From: Candidatus Woesearchaeota archaeon
Lineage (GTDB): Archaea; Nanobdellota; Nanobdellia; SCGC-AAA011-G17; JACPNG01
DNA length: 64,000 bases
Assembly: GCA_016185605.1 (NCBI GenBank)
Contig: JACPNG010000009.1
Coordinates: 53,838 to 117,837, forward strand
Direction of reading: 5' to 3'
A program made the position numbers and the translations under genes. The first letter of the stretch is position 1; each line of letters begins with the position of its first letter. Positions 44,542 to 54,097 of the stretch are shown here, in pieces. Under the pieces are notes generated by a model. It ran no database searches. It saw only the letters and a program-made list of their open reading frames with translations, and was not told the origin of the DNA.

Positions 44542-45252
44542 TTAATCTTCTTCTAAGCTCTTTAGTTTATTAATTAAGACTCCAAGTTCGTTTATGGTTT
44601 TTTTAATAAAATTGTTTAATTCAGTTTCTTTTAAATTTTTAAATTTTAAATCAACATTTCTAAATGCCAATTTAAATATTTTCTTGATATCTTCTTGTTG
44701 AATAGTTTGTATTACTTCTTCAATAAGCTGAATTACATTCTCTTTTTTTTTAAAAAGCGCTATATCTACTTTTCTTATTAAATATGATATATCATATAAA
44801 TCCTTGAATTCTTTTCTATTAACAAACGTTAGTGCTTTAGTGATAAAAATTCTTTCTGTAGGATAAAGATTAAGTTGCCCAACTTTAATTAAATTTTTGG
44901 GTAACTCTACAAAATCAATATCTATCTTACTATAAATTATTTTATGTGTTTTCAATTCTAATTTTATATGGTATCTATTAGTAGATGCAAAAGCAGATTT
45001 TGTTATCTTAAAATCTTTTACTATTTGTTTCCGTTTTAATCGTTCTAAGATTGCAGTAAGGTAATTTTGTATTTCCTTATACTTTTTAATTAGATGTTTA
45101 TCTGCATCAAAATCAAGATCTTCTGATTCTCTATGACTATTTAGATAATAGATTGATAATGCTGTTCCGCCTTTTAATACTAAATCAAATGGATTATCTT
45201 TTTCTACTTCCAGAAGAAATTCTCTTATTATATTTAATATTCTAGACGCCAT
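44542..45252 (-). CDS. AbiEii/DUF1814-like nucleotidyltransferase (type IV toxin-antitoxin toxin-like)
   Basis: 236 aa. LVLKGGTALSIYYLNSHRESEDLDFDAD matches the AbiEii NTase signature (hGGTAL...RxSxDLDh). Confidence 0.65.
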   Translation of the reverse strand: MASRILNIIREFLLEVEKDNPFDLVLKGGTALSIYYLNSHRESEDLDFDADKHLIKKYKEIQNYLTAILERLKRKQIVKDFKITKSAFASTNRYHIKLELKTHKIIYSKIDIDFVELPKNLIKVGQLNLYPTERIFITKALTFVNRKEFKDLYDISYLIRKVDIALFKKKENVIQLIEEVIQTIQQEDIKKIFKLAFRNVDLKFKNLKETELNNFIKKTINELGVLINKLKSLEED

Positions 45253-45844
45253 ATTTTGAATAATCTATTTTTTGTTTTGGTAAGATATTTTTAAACTTAT
45301 CAATATTTTTTACAAACATATTTTTGTATCTTGCAAGCATCTGTATCCATACATTTTCTGTGTATTTATTCTTAGTAAAGGCTATATCTTTAATGATCTG
45401 CTCATTGGTTGCATATTTTAAGCCTGATTCTTTATCTATGACTATTTTACTGCTCTTTATTGACTTTATTCTTATGAACTTAATGGTTTTGTCATTTAAA
45501 GTAACAGTCCCTTCTACTTTTGTGTTTATTATTTCAACTATCTTAGGCTTAAAATACCAACCATATCCATTATGTTTTAAGGCTTCTAAACCAGTTATAT
45601 AATAAGAGCCAATTATGTCTAGCAATATCAAATAGTTATCTTTTAGTTGTTCTATGCTCATAAAACTTTGTAGTAATGTAATTTTCTTCTTCATTTTCCC
45701 CCTTAGATATCTCTTTTCATTTTCTGTTAATTTTTTGCCATTGTCAAGCTTTTTGATTACATTAAATTGTACAGGTTTAAATAGAGTTGGAACTATCAAA
45801 TCTTCTTCTTCTACTATCCAATGTATTATTCTTTGGTTTATCAT
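45242..45844 (-). CDS. putative cognate AbiEi-like antitoxin/regulator (200 aa), overlapping the toxin start by 11 nt
   Basis: Its position and 11-nt overlap with the AbiEii-like gene fit a bicistronic toxin-antitoxin layout. No strong motif is recognised in the sequence itself. Confidence 0.35.
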   Translation of the reverse strand: MINQRIIHWIVEEEDLIVPTLFKPVQFNVIKKLDNGKKLTENEKRYLRGKMKKKITLLQSFMSIEQLKDNYLILLDIIGSYYITGLEALKHNGYGWYFKPKIVEIINTKVEGTVTLNDKTIKFIRIKSIKSSKIVIDKESGLKYATNEQIIKDIAFTKNKYTENVWIQMLARYKNMFVKNIDKFKNILPKQKIDYSKYGV

Positions 45845-46033
45845 AGGATATAAAAATATCCTTATATATTTAAATGTTTCTAGGGAAGATTAATCAAAAG
45901 TTATAAGTTTTGGTCATATTACATATAAATCAAGTATAAATTACATTTATTATAAGTATTATAACTCAATATAGTCACCTTTATAAACAATTTATACATA
46001 CATAATGAGTATAATTTATATTAATACTTAAGA

Positions 46034-46579
46034 ATGAGAAAAAAAGAGACAAAACATAATAGCTCTTATTATTCAGATTTACAAAAAGATAGAAATCTAG
46101 AGATTCTTAAATTAGCCATAAACGAGTTAAAGGAGAAGTATAATTTAAATTATAGTGAGATTCTTAGTTTAATTAAGGAAGAGCCTAAAGAATTAGAAAT
46201 TCCAATTTCTGCATTCTCTAATAAAAAATTAAGCACTTTAGAAATTATATGCAAATATCTAAAGGAAATCAGAAATCTCAAATATCATGATATTGCTATT
46301 TTAATAAGAAGAGATGACAGGACTATATGGACTACTTATCAAAACTCCCTTAAGAAATTTTCAGATCCTTTAGTAATAGAAAAATCTGAAATTTTTATTC
46401 CCGTCTCAGTTTTTGCTAATAGAAATTTCTCTTCATTAGAGGCTTTAATTGTTTTCCTAAAAGAAGTTTCCAAATTACGATATAATGAGATTGCCAAATT
46501 GCTGAAGAAAGATCAACGTAATATCTGGACCGTTTACAACAGAGCAATCAAAAAAAGAGGTGTAAATGAGAAAGGTTGA
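46034..46579 (+). CDS. DNA-binding protein with two tandem sigma-70 region-4-like (LuxR/ECF-r4-type) HTH domains
   Basis: 181 aa. Repeat 1 is IPISAFSNKKLSTLEIICKYLKEIRNLKYHDIAILIRRDDRTIWTTYQNSLKK. Repeat 2 is IPVSVFANRNFSSLEALIVFLKEVSKLRYNEIAKLLKKDQRNIWTVYNRAIKK. The pattern L..LE....FL.E...L.Y.EIA.LL.K...NIWT.Y.RAIKK parallels sigma r4 (e.g. RpoE LSYEEIAAIMDCPVGTVRSRIFRAREAI). The 3' end overlaps the next gene by 14 nt. Confidence 0.6.
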   Translation: MRKKETKHNSSYYSDLQKDRNLEILKLAINELKEKYNLNYSEILSLIKEEPKELEIPISAFSNKKLSTLEIICKYLKEIRNLKYHDIAILIRRDDRTIWTTYQNSLKKFSDPLVIEKSEIFIPVSVFANRNFSSLEALIVFLKEVSKLRYNEIAKLLKKDQRNIWTVYNRAIKKRGVNEKG

Positions 46580-49550
46580 GCTAGAAATAACTAGCTACAG
46601 AAAGAGAATAGAGAATCTAAATAGTAAGATTCAGCTATCTCAATCTAAGAAGAGAGAGATTATTGAATATGTAAAGAGATTGACATTGCTACATCATAAA
46701 TCTAAGATTAGCAATGAGCAGTATAACATAGAGCTATACAGATTCTTAAAAGGAAGTTCTTATGACGAATGGATTAGATATTATGATTCTTATATTAATG
46801 AATGCCATAAAGAAATATCTAATTATAGTAGAGAGATTAATAGATACAAGACAAAAGAGATAATATCAAATAAAGTCATTAATACAGTTTCAAGCCCGTA
46901 CTTCATAATTTTTGCTTTATTAACTATAACATTTGGATTCTTCTTGTTTACAGGAACAACTCCATTTGAACCAACTGGACTAGTCATAGGAAATGTGACA
47001 TTTAATCAAACAAATATTGAATATTTAATCGGAAATAATTTGTCAGATGTAAATGTTACATTAGAATTGAAGAGGAATGATTTAATTCCAGCTGGGTCTA
47101 ATGTAACTGTTATGATTATAAATGAAAATTCATTAATATTAAACATTTCATCAATGAACCTAACAGACTTTATATTGAATTCAACTATTCCATTATGTAC
47201 AAATGGAACTATAGATGTATTGAATGATGTAGATAATGTATATAATTGGGAGGGTGAAACTGCCTATGGTTATGCCCACAATGATACACAATCTGGAGAT
47301 CTAAGTTTCTCATTATGTAATGATGGAGACCCTAATTCCAATATCTATGATGTAAATTTAAGAGAGTTCTTTGAAGGAGGAGATCCAACAGTTCCAAGTG
47401 AGATTGGAATTTATAATATATCTATGAATATCACAAATCAGAGTGATCCCGGAGAAGAACAGGTTGTATTTACAACACAATTATTTGTAGTTGGAAATCC
47501 AGCACCAATATTTGATGAAGTAAGCAACTTTACATTGAATGAAGACTTTGCAACAGCGATAGAATTAAACTTAAGCGATAATGTAACTGATGCAATAGAA
47601 TTAGATAGAGATATAAATTATACTATAACATTAACAGATTCTAGTGTTATAACAGCAGAGTTTGATCTTATTAATGGAACTGGGAATCTAACATTTAGAA
47701 GTGTTGCTAATGTTACAGGAGAAACAAATGTAAATGTAACTGTATATGATTTGAATGGAACTGGGGTAACAAATAGTACCCTATTTACAGTAACAATTAA
47801 TGCAGTAAATGATCCTCCTGGATTAGCTACTATAGCTGACTTTAGTTTGAATGAGGACTTTACAATATTTGAATTGAATATTAGTGAGAATCTAACTGAT
47901 ATAGATGATCCACATAGAGATATTAATTATACTTCAACAAGTTCAGATACGTCTGTAATAACAGTACAAATTGAGAATGGAACTGGAAACTTGACATTCT
48001 TCTCTGTAGCTAATGCTACCGGAAGTTCAACAATCAATATAACAGCATATGATAATAATGGTAGTGTTACAGATGGATTAAATGACAGTAAAGAATTTGT
48101 TATAACAGTAAATGCTGTAAATGACAATCCTTTATTCAATGATATAGGAAACTTCTCAATAACAGAAGACTCTCAACTGCAAGAACTAAACATTTCATTA
48201 AATATTTCAGATGTTGATGATCCTCACAGGGATTTGAATTACACAATATTTGAGAATAATTCTTTATTCTCTATATTGGCAGTAGAGAACGGAACAGGAA
48301 ACTTCACTTATCAACCATCTGGAAATGTAACAGGAACAACTACAATTAATATAACAGTAATAGATTCAAATGGAACTGGATTAATAGAATCAGATACATT
48401 TGACTTGACAATAAATGCCGTTAATGACAAGCCATTATTTGATGCTATAGCAGACATTGACTTGGATGCAAACTTCGCAACATTTGAAATTAATCTAAGC
48501 GATAATGTAACTGATGTGGAAGATCCAGACTCGCAGCTTAATTATACTATTGAAAATAATAATTCAGCCGCATTAACAACAGAATTTGATTTGATTAATG
48601 GAACTGGGAATTTGACAATAAGAGCAGTTCAAGATGTACAAAATACTAATGCAACCATTAACATAACATTATATGACCAAAATGGAGAAGCAGGATATGA
48701 AATAGAAAGCGATGAATTTATTATAACAATAGGGTCAATAACGAATGTGGCTCCAGAAATAACATTCTTATCTGAAAACGTCAATTCAACATTCGATCCA
48801 TTAGAAGGAGACATTAGAAATATAGAGTTTAGTGTTATAATAAATGATTCTGATGGAGATGCTGACATAGGAAATGTTACAGCTAACTTTACGCAAGGGA
48901 CTATTCTAAGAGAGAATATAACAATGTGTGTTCCAGAAGAGACAGGAACAGACACATTTAGCGTCAATTTCTCATGCACTATAGGATTGCAATACTTTGA
49001 CCTTAATGGAGATTATATAATAAACATAGAAGCGAATGATTCACAGGGAGTGACTGCTATTAACAATACTATTACATTGACATATAATCTATTGACTGCA
49101 ATGAATTTAAGTGTAAATGCATTGACATTATCAACTGCAAATCCAGACGACCAAAATATAACAAACAGCACAGACACTAGTTTCTTGAACATAACAAATA
49201 CAGGAAACCAGCCTGGATTGAATATTAGTGTAAATGCATCTGATCTAGGAAATGAAACTACAATATTTACAATACCAGCAGAGAACTTTACATTTGGAAA
49301 TATTAGCATAGATTATACTGGGAGTTCATTCGCTGAATGTATGGATTCTACAATAGATGATCCATTGAATCAAACAACAAATCTTGTAAATGCCACTCTA
49401 ACTTCAGTTAATGGAATAATAGAAAGAGGGGCTGGAGAAACTAGTTCATTATACTTATGCCTAAGGCATGTTCCAGCTGGAATTCCAGGAGTAGCATATA
49501 GCACCTCATTGGGCGGGTCTTGGAGCATACAAGTAGCTCTTGAACCATAA
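46566..49550 (+). CDS. giant type-II membrane surface adhesin: cytoplasmic N-terminal helical domain, one TM, four cadherin-like repeats (...NAVNDxP), and a C-terminal domain shared with the 49659 ORF
   Basis: 994 aa. N-terminal 110 aa charged coiled-coil. TM segment YFIIFALLTITFGFFLF. About four 105-aa repeats each end in INAVNDPP, VNAVNDNP, INAVNDKP or a final GSITNVAP. Extreme N-x-S/T density. Confidence 0.8.
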   Translation: MRKVELEITSYRKRIENLNSKIQLSQSKKREIIEYVKRLTLLHHKSKISNEQYNIELYRFLKGSSYDEWIRYYDSYINECHKEISNYSREINRYKTKEIISNKVINTVSSPYFIIFALLTITFGFFLFTGTTPFEPTGLVIGNVTFNQTNIEYLIGNNLSDVNVTLELKRNDLIPAGSNVTVMIINENSLILNISSMNLTDFILNSTIPLCTNGTIDVLNDVDNVYNWEGETAYGYAHNDTQSGDLSFSLCNDGDPNSNIYDVNLREFFEGGDPTVPSEIGIYNISMNITNQSDPGEEQVVFTTQLFVVGNPAPIFDEVSNFTLNEDFATAIELNLSDNVTDAIELDRDINYTITLTDSSVITAEFDLINGTGNLTFRSVANVTGETNVNVTVYDLNGTGVTNSTLFTVTINAVNDPPGLATIADFSLNEDFTIFELNISENLTDIDDPHRDINYTSTSSDTSVITVQIENGTGNLTFFSVANATGSSTINITAYDNNGSVTDGLNDSKEFVITVNAVNDNPLFNDIGNFSITEDSQLQELNISLNISDVDDPHRDLNYTIFENNSLFSILAVENGTGNFTYQPSGNVTGTTTINITVIDSNGTGLIESDTFDLTINAVNDKPLFDAIADIDLDANFATFEINLSDNVTDVEDPDSQLNYTIENNNSAALTTEFDLINGTGNLTIRAVQDVQNTNATINITLYDQNGEAGYEIESDEFIITIGSITNVAPEITFLSENVNSTFDPLEGDIRNIEFSVIINDSDGDADIGNVTANFTQGTILRENITMCVPEETGTDTFSVNFSCTIGLQYFDLNGDYIINIEANDSQGVTAINNTITLTYNLLTAMNLSVNALTLSTANPDDQNITNSTDTSFLNITNTGNQPGLNISVNASDLGNETTIFTIPAENFTFGNISIDYTGSSFAECMDSTIDDPLNQTTNLVNATLTSVNGIIERGAGETSSLYLCLRHVPAGIPGVAYSTSLGGSWSIQVALEP

Positions 49551-49630
49551 ATAATTAAATAAAATAGAGAATAAACGATAATAAAGTTTATATATAAATA
49601 ATCAATTATAAATGGGATAAAATACAATAA

Positions 49631-49641
49631 GTTTATATATT
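49631..49641 (+). promoter_or_regulatory. candidate TATA box (gtttatatatt) about 23 nt upstream of the ATG at 49659
   Basis: aagtttatatattaaaaag sits directly upstream of the start codon. Leaderless spacing. Confidence 0.3.
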
Positions 49642-49658
49642 AAAAAGAGATAGCAAAA

Positions 49659-50633
49659 ATGATGAATATACAAAAAGGGGATTTTCTATTTATATTTATC
49701 ATAATGGGTGTTTTAATTTTCCTTCCTTTAGCATCTGCTGGATTCTCAGATTGGTTTTCAGGATTAATGGACATAACTGGCTGGCCTGTTGGAGATGTGA
49801 CAACTGTTTCAATAGCATTATCCAATGCTGCTCCAAATGTTAGCGAGGTATCTGCAAATGTAAATTCCTCATTTGATCCTATTGAGGGCGGTTTAAGAGA
49901 GGTTGAATTTACAGTTATAGTGAATGACACAAATGGGGATGCTGATATACAAAATGCTTCAGCCAACTTTACCCAAGGAACTACAGAAAGAGTTAATGGT
50001 ACTTGTGAAAGAGGAGATGTTGGAACAGATAGCGCCAGCGCTAATTTTTCATGTACTATTTCTCTGCAATATTTTAATCCTAATGGAGATTATATAATAA
50101 GGGTTGAGGCAAATGATTCATCTGGACTAGGAGATATAAATAATACTTTAACATTAACATATAATCTATTAACAGCAATGAACTTGTCAGTAAATGCATT
50201 GACATTGGCAGCAGCAGATCCTGACGAATATAATATTACAAATAATTCAGCCACTGACTTCTTGAATATTGAAAATACAGGAAATCAGGCTGGATTGAAT
50301 TTAAGCGTGAATGCATCTGATTTAGGAACAACAAATGCCCAAGCAGGTGCAAATGATTTTATTCCAGCTGAGAACTTTACATTTGCTAACATAAGCATTG
50401 ATTATGACGGGGTGTCAAAAGCAGAATGCATGGATTCTACTTTAGATGGAAATCAAACTACTAATTTGGTTAATGCTACTCTAACAGCTGTTACTGGAAT
50501 AATTGATAGGGGAGCAGCCCAATCAAGTTCATTATATCTATGTTTAGTTCATGTTCCAGCTGGTATTGGGGCATATACTTATGACACAACAAGAGGAGGA
50601 TCATGGAGTGTATTGGTAGCTTCTGAGCCATAA
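49659..50633 (+). CDS. secreted or anchored surface protein, standalone paralog of the C-terminal approximately 290 aa of the 994-aa adhesin
   Basis: 324 aa. N-terminal signal/TM. ...NFTQGT...NFSCTI(S/G)LQYF(N/D)(P/L)NGDYII...EANDS... and LTLTYNLLTAMNLSVNALTL are shared almost verbatim with adhesin residues about 700-994. Confidence 0.75.
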   Translation: MMNIQKGDFLFIFIIMGVLIFLPLASAGFSDWFSGLMDITGWPVGDVTTVSIALSNAAPNVSEVSANVNSSFDPIEGGLREVEFTVIVNDTNGDADIQNASANFTQGTTERVNGTCERGDVGTDSASANFSCTISLQYFNPNGDYIIRVEANDSSGLGDINNTLTLTYNLLTAMNLSVNALTLAAADPDEYNITNNSATDFLNIENTGNQAGLNLSVNASDLGTTNAQAGANDFIPAENFTFANISIDYDGVSKAECMDSTLDGNQTTNLVNATLTAVTGIIDRGAAQSSSLYLCLVHVPAGIGAYTYDTTRGGSWSVLVASEP

Positions 50634-50640
50634 ATAAATA

Positions 50641-51252
50641 ATGGAGAATAAAATGAAGATAATAAAAAAACTGAATATTTTTGTTTTAATAGCTGTATTA
50701 TTGAGCATTAATGTAATTGCATTTGGGGTTTCAACCTCTTATTGGCCTGGGAAGCCATTAGTTTTGGAGCCAGGAGAATCAATGGATGTTTATTTCACAT
50801 TGCAAAATGGAGCTGGCGCTACAGAAGATGTAATAGCAAATGTTGATTTAACTAATGGAAAAGACATTACTCAAATAATAGATGGAAGCAATAGTTATTT
50901 AGTAAAAGCTGGAGGAGAATCTAGAGTAAATTTAAGGGTTCAGATTCCAGATAATGCTAATGTAGGAGATACATATACTGTTGGAATATCAGTTACAGCC
51001 CTGCCAAGCGGAAGGGGGGGTCCAGTTACAATTGGAAGTTCTGTAGATGCCACATTCCCTGTATTGATACAACCTCATGAGCCAGTTCCAACAGCTCCTA
51101 CTGGAGAGGCTGTCAAAGGAATTAAGGGAAGCTATAATATTTATTCTGTTGTGGGATTATTATTGATAATAGCAATAGTAATATTTATATTCTACGAACT
51201 CCATAATAAAAAAAGTGGAACAGAAAAAGGAAAAGGCAAAAAAAGAGATTAA
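50641..51252 (+). CDS. small cell-surface protein with an N-terminal signal/anchor and a C-terminal TM plus basic tail
   Basis: 203 aa. N-terminal IFVLIAVLLSINVIAFG. C-terminal VVGLLLIIAIVIFIFYELHNKKSGTEKGKGKKRD. Confidence 0.6.
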   Translation: MENKMKIIKKLNIFVLIAVLLSINVIAFGVSTSYWPGKPLVLEPGESMDVYFTLQNGAGATEDVIANVDLTNGKDITQIIDGSNSYLVKAGGESRVNLRVQIPDNANVGDTYTVGISVTALPSGRGGPVTIGSSVDATFPVLIQPHEPVPTAPTGEAVKGIKGSYNIYSVVGLLLIIAIVIFIFYELHNKKSGTEKGKGKKRD

Positions 51253-54097
51253 AGAAGTTTTAGTTATAATAATAGTTGTATTGCTATTTTTTCTTTTTAT
51301 AACAAATTACGCAAAGATATTTGAGATAAGTTCAGCTACTATAATTGATGCTGCCACAATATTTGAGATTTTTGCTGTTTCAGACACAACAACTATAGCA
51401 ATTAGTATTCAAACTCCTGTTCCTAATATTACCACTACTCCTATAACTACTGCAACAGAAGATGTATTATATGAATATGATGTTAATGCAACAGGCCATA
51501 ATTTAATCTTCTCAGTAAACAGCAGCGGGCTTTTCACAATTAATTCTGAAAGTGGATTAATTTCATTTACCCCAAGAAATGGACAAAACGGAACACACTC
51601 TATAAATATAAGCGCTTTTGATAATAACAGAAGTATTGACAGCCAAAATTATAGTCTAGTAATAAGTTCAGTAAATGACGCTCCTATTCTAAATACTGTT
51701 GGAGATTTAACTGGCGAAACAGGAAGCTCAAATACATACACAGTAACAGCAACAGACGAGGAGAATGATACATTAACATTCAGCATTCCTAGCAAGGATA
51801 ATGACTTATCTATGACTATAAACAGCAATACTGGGGTTATAACAATCCCTTCTGGCAACACTGCTGGAAATTACTCTGCAACAATAAGGGTTAGCGATGG
51901 CAATAGCAACGATGATGAAGATATAATGGTTAATATAGTAACAACAAATACAGCTCCGGAAATATTGGCTTTCGCTAACAGCATCTCAAATAATTTAGTT
52001 CCAATAATAAGGGAAGATCAAAATATCTCATACAATATAACATATAATGATGATAATGGTAATAACACAGTAAGCATAATATGGAAGCAAAAAAATGGAA
52101 GTTTGAGTTTTGATGATATAAGCAATGGGGAAAATTTTACTTTCTTTGGTGCTGTGGGAAGCACAGAAGGAACCTATCAAATAAAAGCAACTATTTCAGA
52201 CGGATTAACAAGCGTAGATTCAAATATCTCAAATTTAACAGTCACAAAAGTCAAAGATAGCGATGGAGATGGGGTTTTTGACTATACGGATAATTGCAAG
52301 TTTATAAAAAATGCCAACCAGGCAGACAGTAATAGTAACGGCATTGGTGATGTATGCGAGGATGATTTGGACGGAGACGGAGTAGATGATAGTGATGATT
52401 TCATAGATGGTTTTGCCAGTTCAATAAATGCAGTAGACAGCAGCGGAAGCAATATTACAGTAAACTTCACAATCAATAATGATGATAATATTAACCAAAG
52501 TTTTAATGGAGTAAAAACAGTGGCTATAACCTCAACAACTATCGATTCATCTACTGGAAGCACAATTATCGAGCCAATTGTTGAATTTGACCATAATTTT
52601 AACAGCGCAAATAAGCTTGATCTTTCTAATATGAGCATTAAAGAAGAGACAAAAGTCATTAATGGAGAATCCTCTTCTGTTGTTGTTGTTTCTGGGATAT
52701 CTCTTGGGAGCGGAAACACAAAAACAGCATATTTAGAAGTACTATTAGATGGAAATGGTGTTTGCATAAGGGATGAAGAGATTACAAATATAGATGAATT
52801 AAGCACAGACTGCAGCAAGGCTAATGAGAAAAGCATTGGATGTGATGGTAGCACTCAAAACGGATTTACATGCGAGAAAAATACTACATTCAATAAGTAT
52901 AAGATTACTGGATTAAGTTTCAGCGGCATTGGCGAAGAGGAATGCACTGAATCTTGGAGTTGTACCTCATATTCAGCTTGTTCTAATGGACAGCAAACAA
53001 GAACTTGTACAGATTCAAACAATTGCGGCACAACAAATAATAAGCCAGCTGAAAGCCAGTCTTGTGGTGGTAGTGGTGAATCACAAGCTGGCGGAGGAGG
53101 CGGAGGTGGAGGAACTACAGGAAGGGCAGTTGAAAGTAAGATAAAAGAAGGTGTAAGAGTCTTATTAATAGACAATAAACTAATTAATGTCCAGGTTAAA
53201 AAAGGAGACTCATTCAAAAAAACAATAAAGATAAAGAATATAGCAAGTTCTTCTGTAGAGGTTAATCTAGAGCAACAAGATGAATTAAAGGGAATAATAT
53301 CATTCCCAGAGCCAAGGTTTACTCTGGCTTCATTAGAGGAAAGAGAAATAGAAATCCTATTTAATTCCGGAGCTGGAATAGTTCCTGGGGTTTATGTTGG
53401 TGAAATATATGCTGTTTATCAAGATATAAGGGAAAAAATACAGGCTGTAATCGAAATTGAATCTTTAAGGACATTATTTGATGTTACTCTGGATATTCCA
53501 TTAGACTATAAAAAAGTGCTGCCTGGAAAAGAGTTTAGATTGCAAGCTACAATATTTGATTTATCTGGATTGAGATCAGATGTCAATGTTGAGTTTTTCA
53601 TTAGAAACTCAAAAGGCAATACAATATTAAGAGAAAGCCAGATTGTTAGGGTGCAAAATCAAGCTACATTTACCAAGAGCTTTTTGATTCCAGAGGATAT
53701 TCCATTGGGAGAATATATTGTGGGGGCAATTGTCAAGTATAAAGACTCAGTTGGAACTTCCACAAAAAGATTTGATGTAGTTGGTGAAAAAGGATTAATA
53801 GAAATAAGCATACCAAATACTGTTTATTATATTGGTTCTGGGATATTGATGATTTTAATAGCATTATTTGGATTGTATTTATTGCAACAAAGAAGACTAA
53901 AAAGTATAGAAAAATCCCAATCTATTAGGTTGAAGGAATTAGAAAAGAAAACTCCAGAGACTGAAATGGAAAAGACAGATCATAATAAGAAATTAGAAAA
54001 TGAATTAAGCTTGTTGGAAAAGAGCTATAAAGCAGGCTATATCACTAAATCAATATATGAGAAAAGCAAATCCAAGATTGAGAAATTAATGAAATAA
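51215..54097 (+). CDS. large surface protein: N-terminal TM, cadherin-like domain (SVNDAPILNTVGD), thrombospondin type-3-like Ca-binding repeats, Cys-rich module, Gly8 linker, a second TM and a cytoplasmic coiled-coil tail
   Basis: 960 aa. The TSP3-like segment DSDGDGVFDYTDNCKFIKNANQADSNSNGIGDVCEDDLDGDGVDDSDD fits DxDxDGxxDxxDNCPxxxNxxQxDxDxDGxGDxC. Also SQAGGGGGGGGTTGR. C-terminal TM GSGILMILIALFGLYLL followed by a Lys/Glu-rich tail. Confidence 0.8.
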   Translation: MEQKKEKAKKEIKEVLVIIIVVLLFFLFITNYAKIFEISSATIIDAATIFEIFAVSDTTTIAISIQTPVPNITTTPITTATEDVLYEYDVNATGHNLIFSVNSSGLFTINSESGLISFTPRNGQNGTHSINISAFDNNRSIDSQNYSLVISSVNDAPILNTVGDLTGETGSSNTYTVTATDEENDTLTFSIPSKDNDLSMTINSNTGVITIPSGNTAGNYSATIRVSDGNSNDDEDIMVNIVTTNTAPEILAFANSISNNLVPIIREDQNISYNITYNDDNGNNTVSIIWKQKNGSLSFDDISNGENFTFFGAVGSTEGTYQIKATISDGLTSVDSNISNLTVTKVKDSDGDGVFDYTDNCKFIKNANQADSNSNGIGDVCEDDLDGDGVDDSDDFIDGFASSINAVDSSGSNITVNFTINNDDNINQSFNGVKTVAITSTTIDSSTGSTIIEPIVEFDHNFNSANKLDLSNMSIKEETKVINGESSSVVVVSGISLGSGNTKTAYLEVLLDGNGVCIRDEEITNIDELSTDCSKANEKSIGCDGSTQNGFTCEKNTTFNKYKITGLSFSGIGEEECTESWSCTSYSACSNGQQTRTCTDSNNCGTTNNKPAESQSCGGSGESQAGGGGGGGGTTGRAVESKIKEGVRVLLIDNKLINVQVKKGDSFKKTIKIKNIASSSVEVNLEQQDELKGIISFPEPRFTLASLEEREIEILFNSGAGIVPGVYVGEIYAVYQDIREKIQAVIEIESLRTLFDVTLDIPLDYKKVLPGKEFRLQATIFDLSGLRSDVNVEFFIRNSKGNTILRESQIVRVQNQATFTKSFLIPEDIPLGEYIVGAIVKYKDSVGTSTKRFDVVGEKGLIEISIPNTVYYIGSGILMILIALFGLYLLQQRRLKSIEKSQSIRLKELEKKTPETEMEKTDHNKKLENELSLLEKSYKAGYITKSIYEKSKSKIEKLMK

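Follow-up and report, generated by a model that had tools for sequence, protein, structure and literature searches.

A tandem region-4-like helix-turn-helix family linked to surface-protein genes of DPANN archaea: a candidate phased operator and probable autoregulation

Why does an archaeon encode a small protein resembling region 4 of bacterial sigma factors, in a gene that runs into the gene of a large surface protein? The question is raised by a 64-kb stretch (hereafter: the window) from a metagenome-assembled genome (MAG) of a Candidatus Woesearchaeota archaeon, in which a 181-aa tandem helix-turn-helix (HTH) protein (46034..46579, + strand; from the listing of open reading frames, ORFs) is followed by a 994-aa type-II membrane surface protein (46566..49550, + strand; ORF listing, Pfam and hydropathy). 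In that genome the 181-aa protein corresponds, at 100% identity, to the "hypothetical protein" HYX17_01980, encoded on a contig of 118,893 bp. Since the window encodes an ATP-dependent DNA ligase, FtsZ and GatD, the host can be identified as a DPANN archaeon. The initial annotation of this locus envisaged a trans-envelope signalling pair after the fashion of extracytoplasmic function (ECF) sigma and anti-sigma factors. It missed a phased array of operator-like sites upstream of the HTH gene, and this array suggests, in the first place, that DNA is bound directly and that the operon is autoregulated. We therefore propose that the 181-aa protein is probably a dedicated autoregulator of its operon, presumably a repressor, which would bind the bipartite element TAC(A/T)TA-N5-TAAGTA.

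The tandem HTH family

The 181-aa protein contains two copies of a region-4-type HTH, as the initial annotation had recognized. Repeat 1 (aa 53–108; 46190..46357, + strand) was delineated as an internal repeat, with helices 68–78, 84–91 and 95–108 in the AlphaFold2 (AF2) model and the recognition helix RTIWTTYQNSLKK; repeat 2 (aa 119–174; 46388..46555, + strand) includes the region aligned to Sigma70_r4_2 (aa 138–174), has AF2 helices 134–145, 150–157 and 161–180, and carries the recognition helix RNIWTVYNRAIKK. The repeats share 45% identity over 56 aa (E = 8e-20). In the Pfam search the window protein matches Sigma70_r4_2 by repeat 2 only (E = 4e-4, 20.4 bits, below the gathering score of 25.7), and 29 of its 30 aligned homologues match the same family at E ≤ 0.01 (best 6e-12). 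The second-ranked Pfam match among the homologues is HTH_23. A LuxR-type alternative, also suggested earlier, found no support, as none of the 30 family members matched GerE (PF00196) at E ≤ 0.01. We regard a region-4-like assignment as solid at the family level.

The AF2 model calculated from the family alignment (predicted local distance difference test, pLDDT, 86.7; predicted template-modelling score, pTM, 0.69) shows in each repeat a short strand and a short helix followed by three longer helices. In Foldseek searches of the PDB, where for this model and for that of the partner domain described below we used the ranking and the root-mean-square deviation (rmsd) over small domains (no E-value ≤ 1e-3), sigma factors dominate the list and region 4 of ECF sigma factors comes out on top: SigD region 4 superimposes with an rmsd of 0.8 Å over 50 columns (TM-score 0.77) and SigR region 4 with 1.6 Å over 50 columns, both with E-values that are not significant. 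The protein is basic (isoelectric point, pI, 9.6; net charge +12), and the third helices of the repeats, R(T/N)IW(T)xY...KK, which correspond to the recognition helices, are the best-conserved, near-invariant columns of the family.

A true sigma factor can be ruled out. Sigma70_r2 gave no match in the 181-aa protein at E ≤ 1 in Pfam or NCBIfam, the NCBIfam models of ECF sigma factors align to it by the last ~40 positions only and far under their cut-offs, and the N-terminal half is a second region-4-like repeat. Because region 2 is missing, we classify the protein as a region-4-type tandem HTH and not as a sigma factor; archaeal RNA polymerase works with TBP and TFB. The names given to family members in the source databases are "hypothetical" and, in one case, "sigma24 family"; the latter annotation is wrong. 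An HTH of a mobile element was rejected as well, as the matches to HTH_23 and HTH_38 are weak and the conserved synteny (see below) argues against it. The protein is region-4-like at the superfamily level and represents a DPANN-specific tandem HTH. The initial annotation took the occurrence of such a domain in an archaeon as a paradox; this view cannot be upheld, because HTH domains of region-4, LuxR, Tfx and HTH_10 type have already been catalogued in archaea (PMC5413776).

A profile search against 1.84 billion representative sequences retrieved 2,253 clusters of the family at 50% identity, 1,330 of them at E ≤ 1e-30, including proteins of 1,200–5,919 aa in which the HTH module is C-terminal. 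All database matches with an organism label come from Woesearchaeota, Nanoarchaeota or other DPANN lineages; a few of the locus records that we fetched are labelled Methanosarcinales or Patescibacteria, which we attribute to mislabelling or mis-binning of MAGs. The family is covered by no dedicated Pfam or NCBIfam model, and in the literature searched we found a description neither of the family nor of adhesin–HTH fusions in DPANN archaea. For the comparative analysis, a scan of GTDB species-representative genomes located 330 loci, of which 80 were fetched, and 87 HTH-bearing genes were classified using our own ORF calls and local hidden Markov models (HMMs). In some relatives (P0007, P0150, P0136, L037, L040, L053) the whole HTH unit is doubled, giving four HTH repeats; the doubled unit occurs both as a free protein (~320–370 aa) and at the tail end of giants as long as 5,919 aa.

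A phased bipartite motif upstream of the HTH genes

As the recognition helices are near-invariant, we sought a DNA element shared by the genes of the family. The heptamer TAAGTAT occurs in the 150-nt upstream regions of 35 of 52 HTH-bearing genes, compared with 26 of 183 other genes from the same loci (p = 4e-13). Alignment of the sites revealed a 17-bp bipartite pseudo-palindrome, TAC(A/T)TA-N5-TAAGTA, with a C in 72% of the sites twelve bp 5' of an invariant G. With at most one mismatch, this motif is found in 42 of the 52 HTH promoters vs 18 of the 183 controls (p = 1e-22), and the mean for 200 permuted patterns was 0.01 promoters out of the 52. Ten controls contain an exact site, and all of them either share an intergenic region with an HTH gene or precede the gene of an adhesin with the N-terminal hairpin described below. 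The exact sites are concentrated in the same way: 67 of 85 fall within 400 nt upstream of HTH genes, a territory that makes up 2.95% of the 920 kb analysed (p = 2e-85), and most of the remainder adjoin HTH or hairpin genes missed by the gene caller.

The sites are also regularly arranged. Distances between adjacent sites peak at 20–22, 30–33, 41–42, 51–54 and 62–64 nt, i.e. at whole helical turns (phasing of ~10.5 bp), and relative to a TATA box of the form TTTAWAWA the sites begin at +11 to +16 (peak at +13) and at about -40. The site downstream of the TATA box spans the interval in which transcription is expected to start.

The window contains three such sites, all on the + strand and upstream of the HTH gene. 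Site 1, TACATATAAATCAAGTA (45920..45936, -114 from the ATG), has one mismatch to TACNTANNNNNTAAGTA; site 2, TACATTTATTATAAGTA (45942..45958, -92 from the ATG), begins 22 nt after site 1, on the family-wide peak of 20–22 nt; site 3, TACATACATAATGAGTA (45995..46011, -39 from the ATG), begins about five helical turns (53 nt) past the start of site 2, between the start codon and a TATA-box-like element read from the sequence, TTTATAAA (45979..45986, + strand), 16 nt past the first base of the latter. These are the only sites with at most one mismatch in the 64 kb, and they are clustered within 92 bp. The promoter blocks, sites as well as TATA box, are kept in the closest relative (L001).

In the 183 control upstream regions (L001–L089), TATA-like TTTAWAWA elements peak at -30 relative to the start codon; ordinary genes of these genomes thus seem to give mostly leaderless transcripts. 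In the HTH operons the TATA box is found at -35 to -45 and the operator lies between it and the start codon. A scan of the window for sigma-70-type promoters gave no more hits than shuffled sequences, and such a scan does not apply to an archaeon.

From these observations we infer that the 181-aa protein most likely recognizes the motif. Its tandem HTH would bind the 17 bp with one repeat per 6-bp half-site, the half-sites being 11 bp apart, and the helically phased upstream sites may provide cooperativity. Archaeal repressors that bind between TATA box and start codon usually block recruitment of the polymerase. Because site 3 occupies this position, negative autoregulation is the default reading: occupancy of the proximal site would repress transcription, as with the archaeal repressors MDR1, Phr and those of the TrmB family.

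Coupling and fusion to surface proteins

The gene of the 994-aa protein begins inside the HTH gene, with an overlap of 14 nt, in agreement with the initial annotation. A Shine-Dalgarno-like GAGGTG read from the sequence lies within the HTH gene (46556..46561, + strand), 4 nt 5' of the ATG at 46566, and this placement, together with the overlap, is consistent with translational coupling of the two genes. Since the second gene starts inside the end of the first, regulator and surface protein would be made together, and coupling (or, in relatives, fusion) may tie the dosage of the regulator to the output of surface protein.

Hydropathy, AF2 modelling and Pfam agree on the architecture that had been read from the 994-aa sequence earlier, namely a helical N-terminus of about 110 aa, a single transmembrane segment and a cadherin-like ectodomain. 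The predicted cytoplasmic domain (aa 1–108; 46566..46889, + strand; pLDDT 90.8) forms helices 3–44, 50–60 and 66–108 in the AF2 model of residues 1–130, i.e. a long antiparallel hairpin preceding the signal anchor. The transmembrane segment (aa 111–131; 46896..46958, + strand), the only one in the protein, covers residues 113–131 by hydropathy and a helix of residues 111–129 by AF2, and it leads into a juxtamembrane motif, ...FTGTTPFEPTGLV, assigned by its motif family. A cleaved classical signal peptide was rejected, as the initial annotation had assumed, on the grounds that a conserved, confidently predicted hairpin of 108 aa precedes the transmembrane helix. The hairpin domain has homologues in 23 partner or fused proteins, and none of 22 family members gave a Pfam match. 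A word-indexed search with this domain found one homologue, and a narrow alignment of it run against metagenomes found nine loci, including three clear relatives with the HTH and three weak matches without it, a sample too small to estimate reciprocal co-occurrence.

The ectodomain comprises four repeats of ~100 aa of the cadherin-like/Big_9/tandem-95 type (aa ~305–720; 47478..48725, + strand), with matches in multiple stretches to Cadherin_4 (31.0 bits, cut-off 25.1) and Big_9 (27.0 bits, cut-off 23.6) and one to the NCBIfam model tand_rpt_95 (E = 2.7e-13, under its cut-off), and N-x-S/T sequons are abundant. It ends with a C-terminal module of ~270 aa (aa 724–991; 48735..49538, + strand), which is 66% identical to aa 53–324 of a 324-aa protein encoded in the same operon; our own HMM of this C-module matches 75 proteins in related loci. 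We use the term "adhesin" as suggested by this domain content. The protein had also been called giant; with 994 aa it is large rather than giant, and the epithet suits relatives that reach 5,919 aa.

In the related loci the association with membrane proteins is recurrent, as had been anticipated. Among the 87 genes, there are 33 in which the HTH module forms the C-terminal end of a giant surface protein. The remainder encode a stand-alone HTH protein, followed in 28 genes by a membrane protein with its first transmembrane segment at residue 50 or later (the arrangement in the window), in 17 by a membrane protein with a short N-terminal tail and in two by a protein without a transmembrane segment; two show some other arrangement and for five there are no downstream data. 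A membrane-protein gene thus follows in 45 of 49 evaluable stand-alone cases, on the same strand and usually with an overlap of 4–59 nt, and synteny or fusion is seen in 78 of 82 evaluable cases. The partners are single-pass type-II proteins with a basic or helical cytoplasmic N-tail (10–245 aa), one transmembrane segment and, nearly always, the juxtamembrane motif, followed by an ectodomain of ~70 to more than 2,000 aa. In 17 of the 45 the N-tail is a short basic segment of 10–35 aa and there is no hairpin.

The juxtamembrane motif, (K)P-S-(I/L)-T-G-(F/Y), occurs in nearly all membrane proteins coupled to the HTH, as seen in the first ~170 aa of the partner proteins of loci L001–L080; in the window it lies at 46950–46990 (aa ~128–142). 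A role in processing or sorting is conceivable, and cleavage at the motif would part hairpin and transmembrane segment from the ectodomain.

In the fused proteins the order is N-terminal hairpin, transmembrane segment, ectodomain, C-module (ending in ...GSWTI(K/R)I), a linker, and a full equivalent of the 181-aa protein, sometimes present twice. The hairpin is present in nine of the 11 fused proteins for which the ORF is not cut off by the end of the locus. The linker, 8–15 uncharged residues followed by 5–10 Lys/Arg, is present at every listed fused junction and absent from all unfused C-modules except one; both C-module proteins of the window end right after the last strand. This fits a short membrane crossing that would place the HTH module in the cytoplasm. 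Fusions are also present in gene calls of the databases, for instance P0150 (1,252 aa), P0140 and P0136 (5,919 aa), the last of which lacks the hairpin. Because 33 independent loci and the databases' own gene calls contain such "Rosetta stone" fusions, a functional link between HTH and surface protein is indicated. Moreover, since HTH module and surface protein are one chain in about one third of the relatives, the regulator may be able to work from the membrane or to be controlled there; membrane control, and with it any tethering of the free protein in the window, is possible. In L024, L065 and L068 genes of giant proteins and HTH proteins alternate, 0 or -1 nt apart, and look like recent intermediates of fission or fusion between the fused and the split architecture.

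The HTH gene heads an operon of five genes on the same strand, encoding proteins of 181, 994, 324, 203 and 960 aa. The third product (49659..50633, + strand) is a secreted or anchored protein composed of a signal/transmembrane segment and a C-module, the position of which in the operon is kept in relatives; a word-indexed search with it found eight homologues, and with its family as the starting point one arrives again at giants, one of them fused (L090) and the other unfused (L091). The fourth (50641..51252, + strand) has a transmembrane segment at either end and 40 homologues in the same operon position. The fifth (51215..54097, + strand; He_PIG, Big_9 and TSP3 by Pfam) is a surface protein with N- and C-terminal transmembrane segments and a cytoplasmic tail, with 43 homologues in related loci. 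The order giant, ~310-aa C-module protein, ~180-aa protein with a transmembrane segment at both ends, and ~560–960-aa protein recurs in relatives. By eye, the cytoplasmic tail of the 960-aa protein (53830–54094; …LSLLEKSYKAGYITKSIYEKSKSKIEKL) resembles both the G-x-I-S-x-x-x-Y of the adhesin N-hairpin and SHOCT-like motifs.

The C-modules of the giant and of the ~310-aa protein are far closer to each other within a genome than between genomes: the 66% identity in the window is between 48735–49538 and 49815–50630, in L013 the last ~25 residues are identical, and similar likeness is seen in L016, L017, L028, L046 and L077. This suggests concerted evolution or co-assembly.

Divergent to the operon lies an AbiEii-family toxin gene (44542–45844, - strand; Pfam E = 5.5e-22), overlapped by a 200-aa ORF upstream of it that has no family match and is probably the antitoxin. 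The GC content is 0.29–0.34 over the surface-protein operon (46000–54000) vs 0.24–0.26 in the flanking 10–46 kb. Just upstream of the N-x-S/T-rich surface-protein genes, at ~14700–42900, the window contains a long run of glycosylation and envelope genes, with PMT_2 and YfhO-like membrane proteins, a fused GT1+GT9 glycosyltransferase and many further same-strand ORFs. Scans for tRNA and Rfam families gave no matches in the window, and no tandem DNA repeats were found in the surface-protein operon.

Weighing the explanations and comparison with known systems

Several observations weigh against autoregulation through the phased sites. A search of PDB sequences with the profile of the HTH family returned nothing significant, and every Foldseek E-value obtained with the 181-aa model exceeded 0.01. 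The three sites in the window are not above the 3.58 expected from shuffled sequence, and our argument rests on their clustering and on the family-wide statistics, not on the window count. As the loci were selected by the presence of the HTH gene, the specificity of the motif was measured against flanks of only ~10 kb. One contig end (L071:425–702) carries at least five palindromic operator sites, 50–53 nt apart, upstream of genes for a RIO kinase, a KH-domain protein and topoisomerase VI and with no adjacent HTH gene; this points either to a wider regulon or to a true neighbour situated past the end of the contig. The link between protein and motif is correlative, and another factor or a special promoter element could explain the motif. 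Finally, in the fused relatives the hydrophobic segment ahead of the HTH, with its 8–15 uncharged residues, is short for a transmembrane helix, and a membrane-tethered repressor could act only if promoter DNA reached the membrane or if the tail were released by proteolysis.

The strongest competitor of direct autoregulation is the trans-envelope signalling of the initial annotation, in which the N-hairpin keeps the free HTH protein at the membrane until an altered state of the ectodomain, caused for instance by host contact, glycosylation or proteolysis, lets it go to act on the promoter. Gene order and topology are those of sigma/anti-sigma pairs, the combination of a conserved N-tail, transmembrane segment and juxtamembrane motif with variable ectodomains is typical of sensor families, and in the fused relatives, most of the complete ones having the hairpin, this domain and the HTH tail belong to one polypeptide and are both predicted to be cytoplasmic. 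The resemblance to anti-sigma factors thus holds for the type-II topology and for the position of the gene directly downstream; it does not extend to the domain itself. Neither Pfam nor the top 50 Foldseek matches to PDB structures revealed an anti-sigma factor, the structural matches being EmrA, HlyD, YscO and other coiled coils, and the HxxxCxxC motif is absent from residues 1–112 as read from the sequence; what is left is a generic two-helix hairpin. The hairpin is moreover strongly basic (pI 9.6, net +8), like the HTH protein, which speaks against electrostatic complementarity of the two. Since 17 of the 45 partners carry a short basic N-tail in place of the hairpin, and fused P0136 has none either, the coupling in general cannot rest on binding by the hairpin. 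We consider this mechanism unlikely, though ahead of the other rivals; it does not conflict with the operator finding and would put a further layer of control on top of autoregulation. Equally tentative is a broader version, a contact-sensing circuit of episymbiotic DPANN archaea in which the adhesin controls the availability of its own region-4-type factor, either tethered covalently and perhaps freed by Notch-like cleavage in the fused form or held non-covalently by the hairpin in the split form, as in the window, so that attachment to a host would reprogramme transcription via the operators.

It is distinctly less probable that some other factor occupies the motif arrays, or that these reflect a special promoter architecture, and that the HTH has its targets elsewhere, for example in tethering the nucleoid or DNA at the site of adhesion. 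The correlative nature of the protein–motif link, the L071 array away from any HTH gene and the permanent location of the HTH module at the membrane in fused forms are in line with this idea. On the other hand, motif and HTH occur together in 42 of 52 promoters although the HTH proteins are only ~40–55% identical across lineages, the 6-N5-6 geometry with half-sites 11 bp apart suits a pseudo-dimer of two HTHs, and the near-invariance of the recognition helices parallels that of the motif.

Still lower we rank the possibility that the HTH module binds no DNA at all and serves as a cytoplasmic adaptor or export chaperone of the co-translated surface protein. Translational coupling and C-terminal fusion would suit an assembly factor, and region 4 of bacterial sigma factors also contacts proteins. 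Against such a role stand the conserved basic and aromatic recognition helices in a protein of net charge +12, the dedicated motif arrays in the promoters, and partner N-tails too variable to offer a conserved docking site. A chance neighbourhood of generic HTH and surface-protein genes, with the fusions as artefacts of ORF calling, could appeal to the sub-threshold Pfam score of the window protein, yet it is refuted by the synteny or fusion in nearly all evaluable cases, the size of the family and the fusions repeated in independent gene calls, and we give it next to no credence.

DPANN archaea live attached to other cells. To our knowledge, the regulation and sensing of this attachment are essentially unknown, and very few DPANN transcription factors have a predicted target. 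The family described here offers three linked properties, a DNA-binding fold, a candidate phased operator and recurrent fusion to giant surface proteins. If the binding is true, it would be among the first regulator–operator pairs assigned in Woesearchaeota and Pacearchaeota and would give a handle on the control of adhesin expression. If the membrane link is regulatory, it would represent an archaeal trans-envelope route that is similar in layout to sigma/anti-sigma pairs or tethered factors and unrelated to them.

With the ECF sigma/anti-sigma systems such as SigE-RseA and SigW-RsiW, the locus shares a small region-4-type HTH gene directly 5' of a co-translated type-II single-pass partner, a partner whose cytoplasmic N-terminus is helical and whose extracytoplasmic part varies, apparent autoregulation of the regulator's operon, and ECF sigma region 4 as the best structural match. 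It differs in that region 2 is missing and no RNA polymerase of bacterial type is there to be bound, in that two region-4-like repeats take the place of sigma2 and sigma4, in that the partner's N-domain is a long coiled-coil hairpin missing in many partners, and in that the candidate target consists of phased 17-bp pseudo-palindromes and not of a -35/-10 promoter.

Archaeal repressors that act downstream of the TATA box, e.g. MDR1, Phr, NrpR and the TrmB family, likewise have an operator just 3' of the TATA box over the expected start, additional sites upstream, and apparent control of their own operon. They are winged-helix dimers, whereas the family described here has a region-4/LuxR-like tandem in one chain, is coupled or fused to surface-protein genes and is restricted to DPANN archaea. 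The fused relatives resemble membrane-tethered regulators, such as the bacterial ToxR/CadC, the archaeal ArnR and, conceptually, the eukaryotic Notch/SREBP type, in a predicted layout with a putative DNA-binding domain facing the cytoplasm and a large ectodomain turned outward. There is no homology to these regulators; in our family the domain is C-terminal, behind a putative second, short transmembrane segment and poly-Lys, the ectodomain is an adhesin-like array of 1,000–5,900 aa, and the regulator in the window is a separate protein.

Archaeal HTH proteins of the region-4/LuxR type (Tfx, HTH_10/Bat, LuxR solos; PMC5413776) belong to the same broad superfamily and are ordinary DNA-binding regulators; the family in the window lacks Tfx_C, GAF and PAS domains, is built by tandem duplication and forms a distinct family. 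In function it appears closest to an ordinary archaeal operator-binding autoregulator, distinguished by an unusual, recurrent physical link to giant surface proteins.

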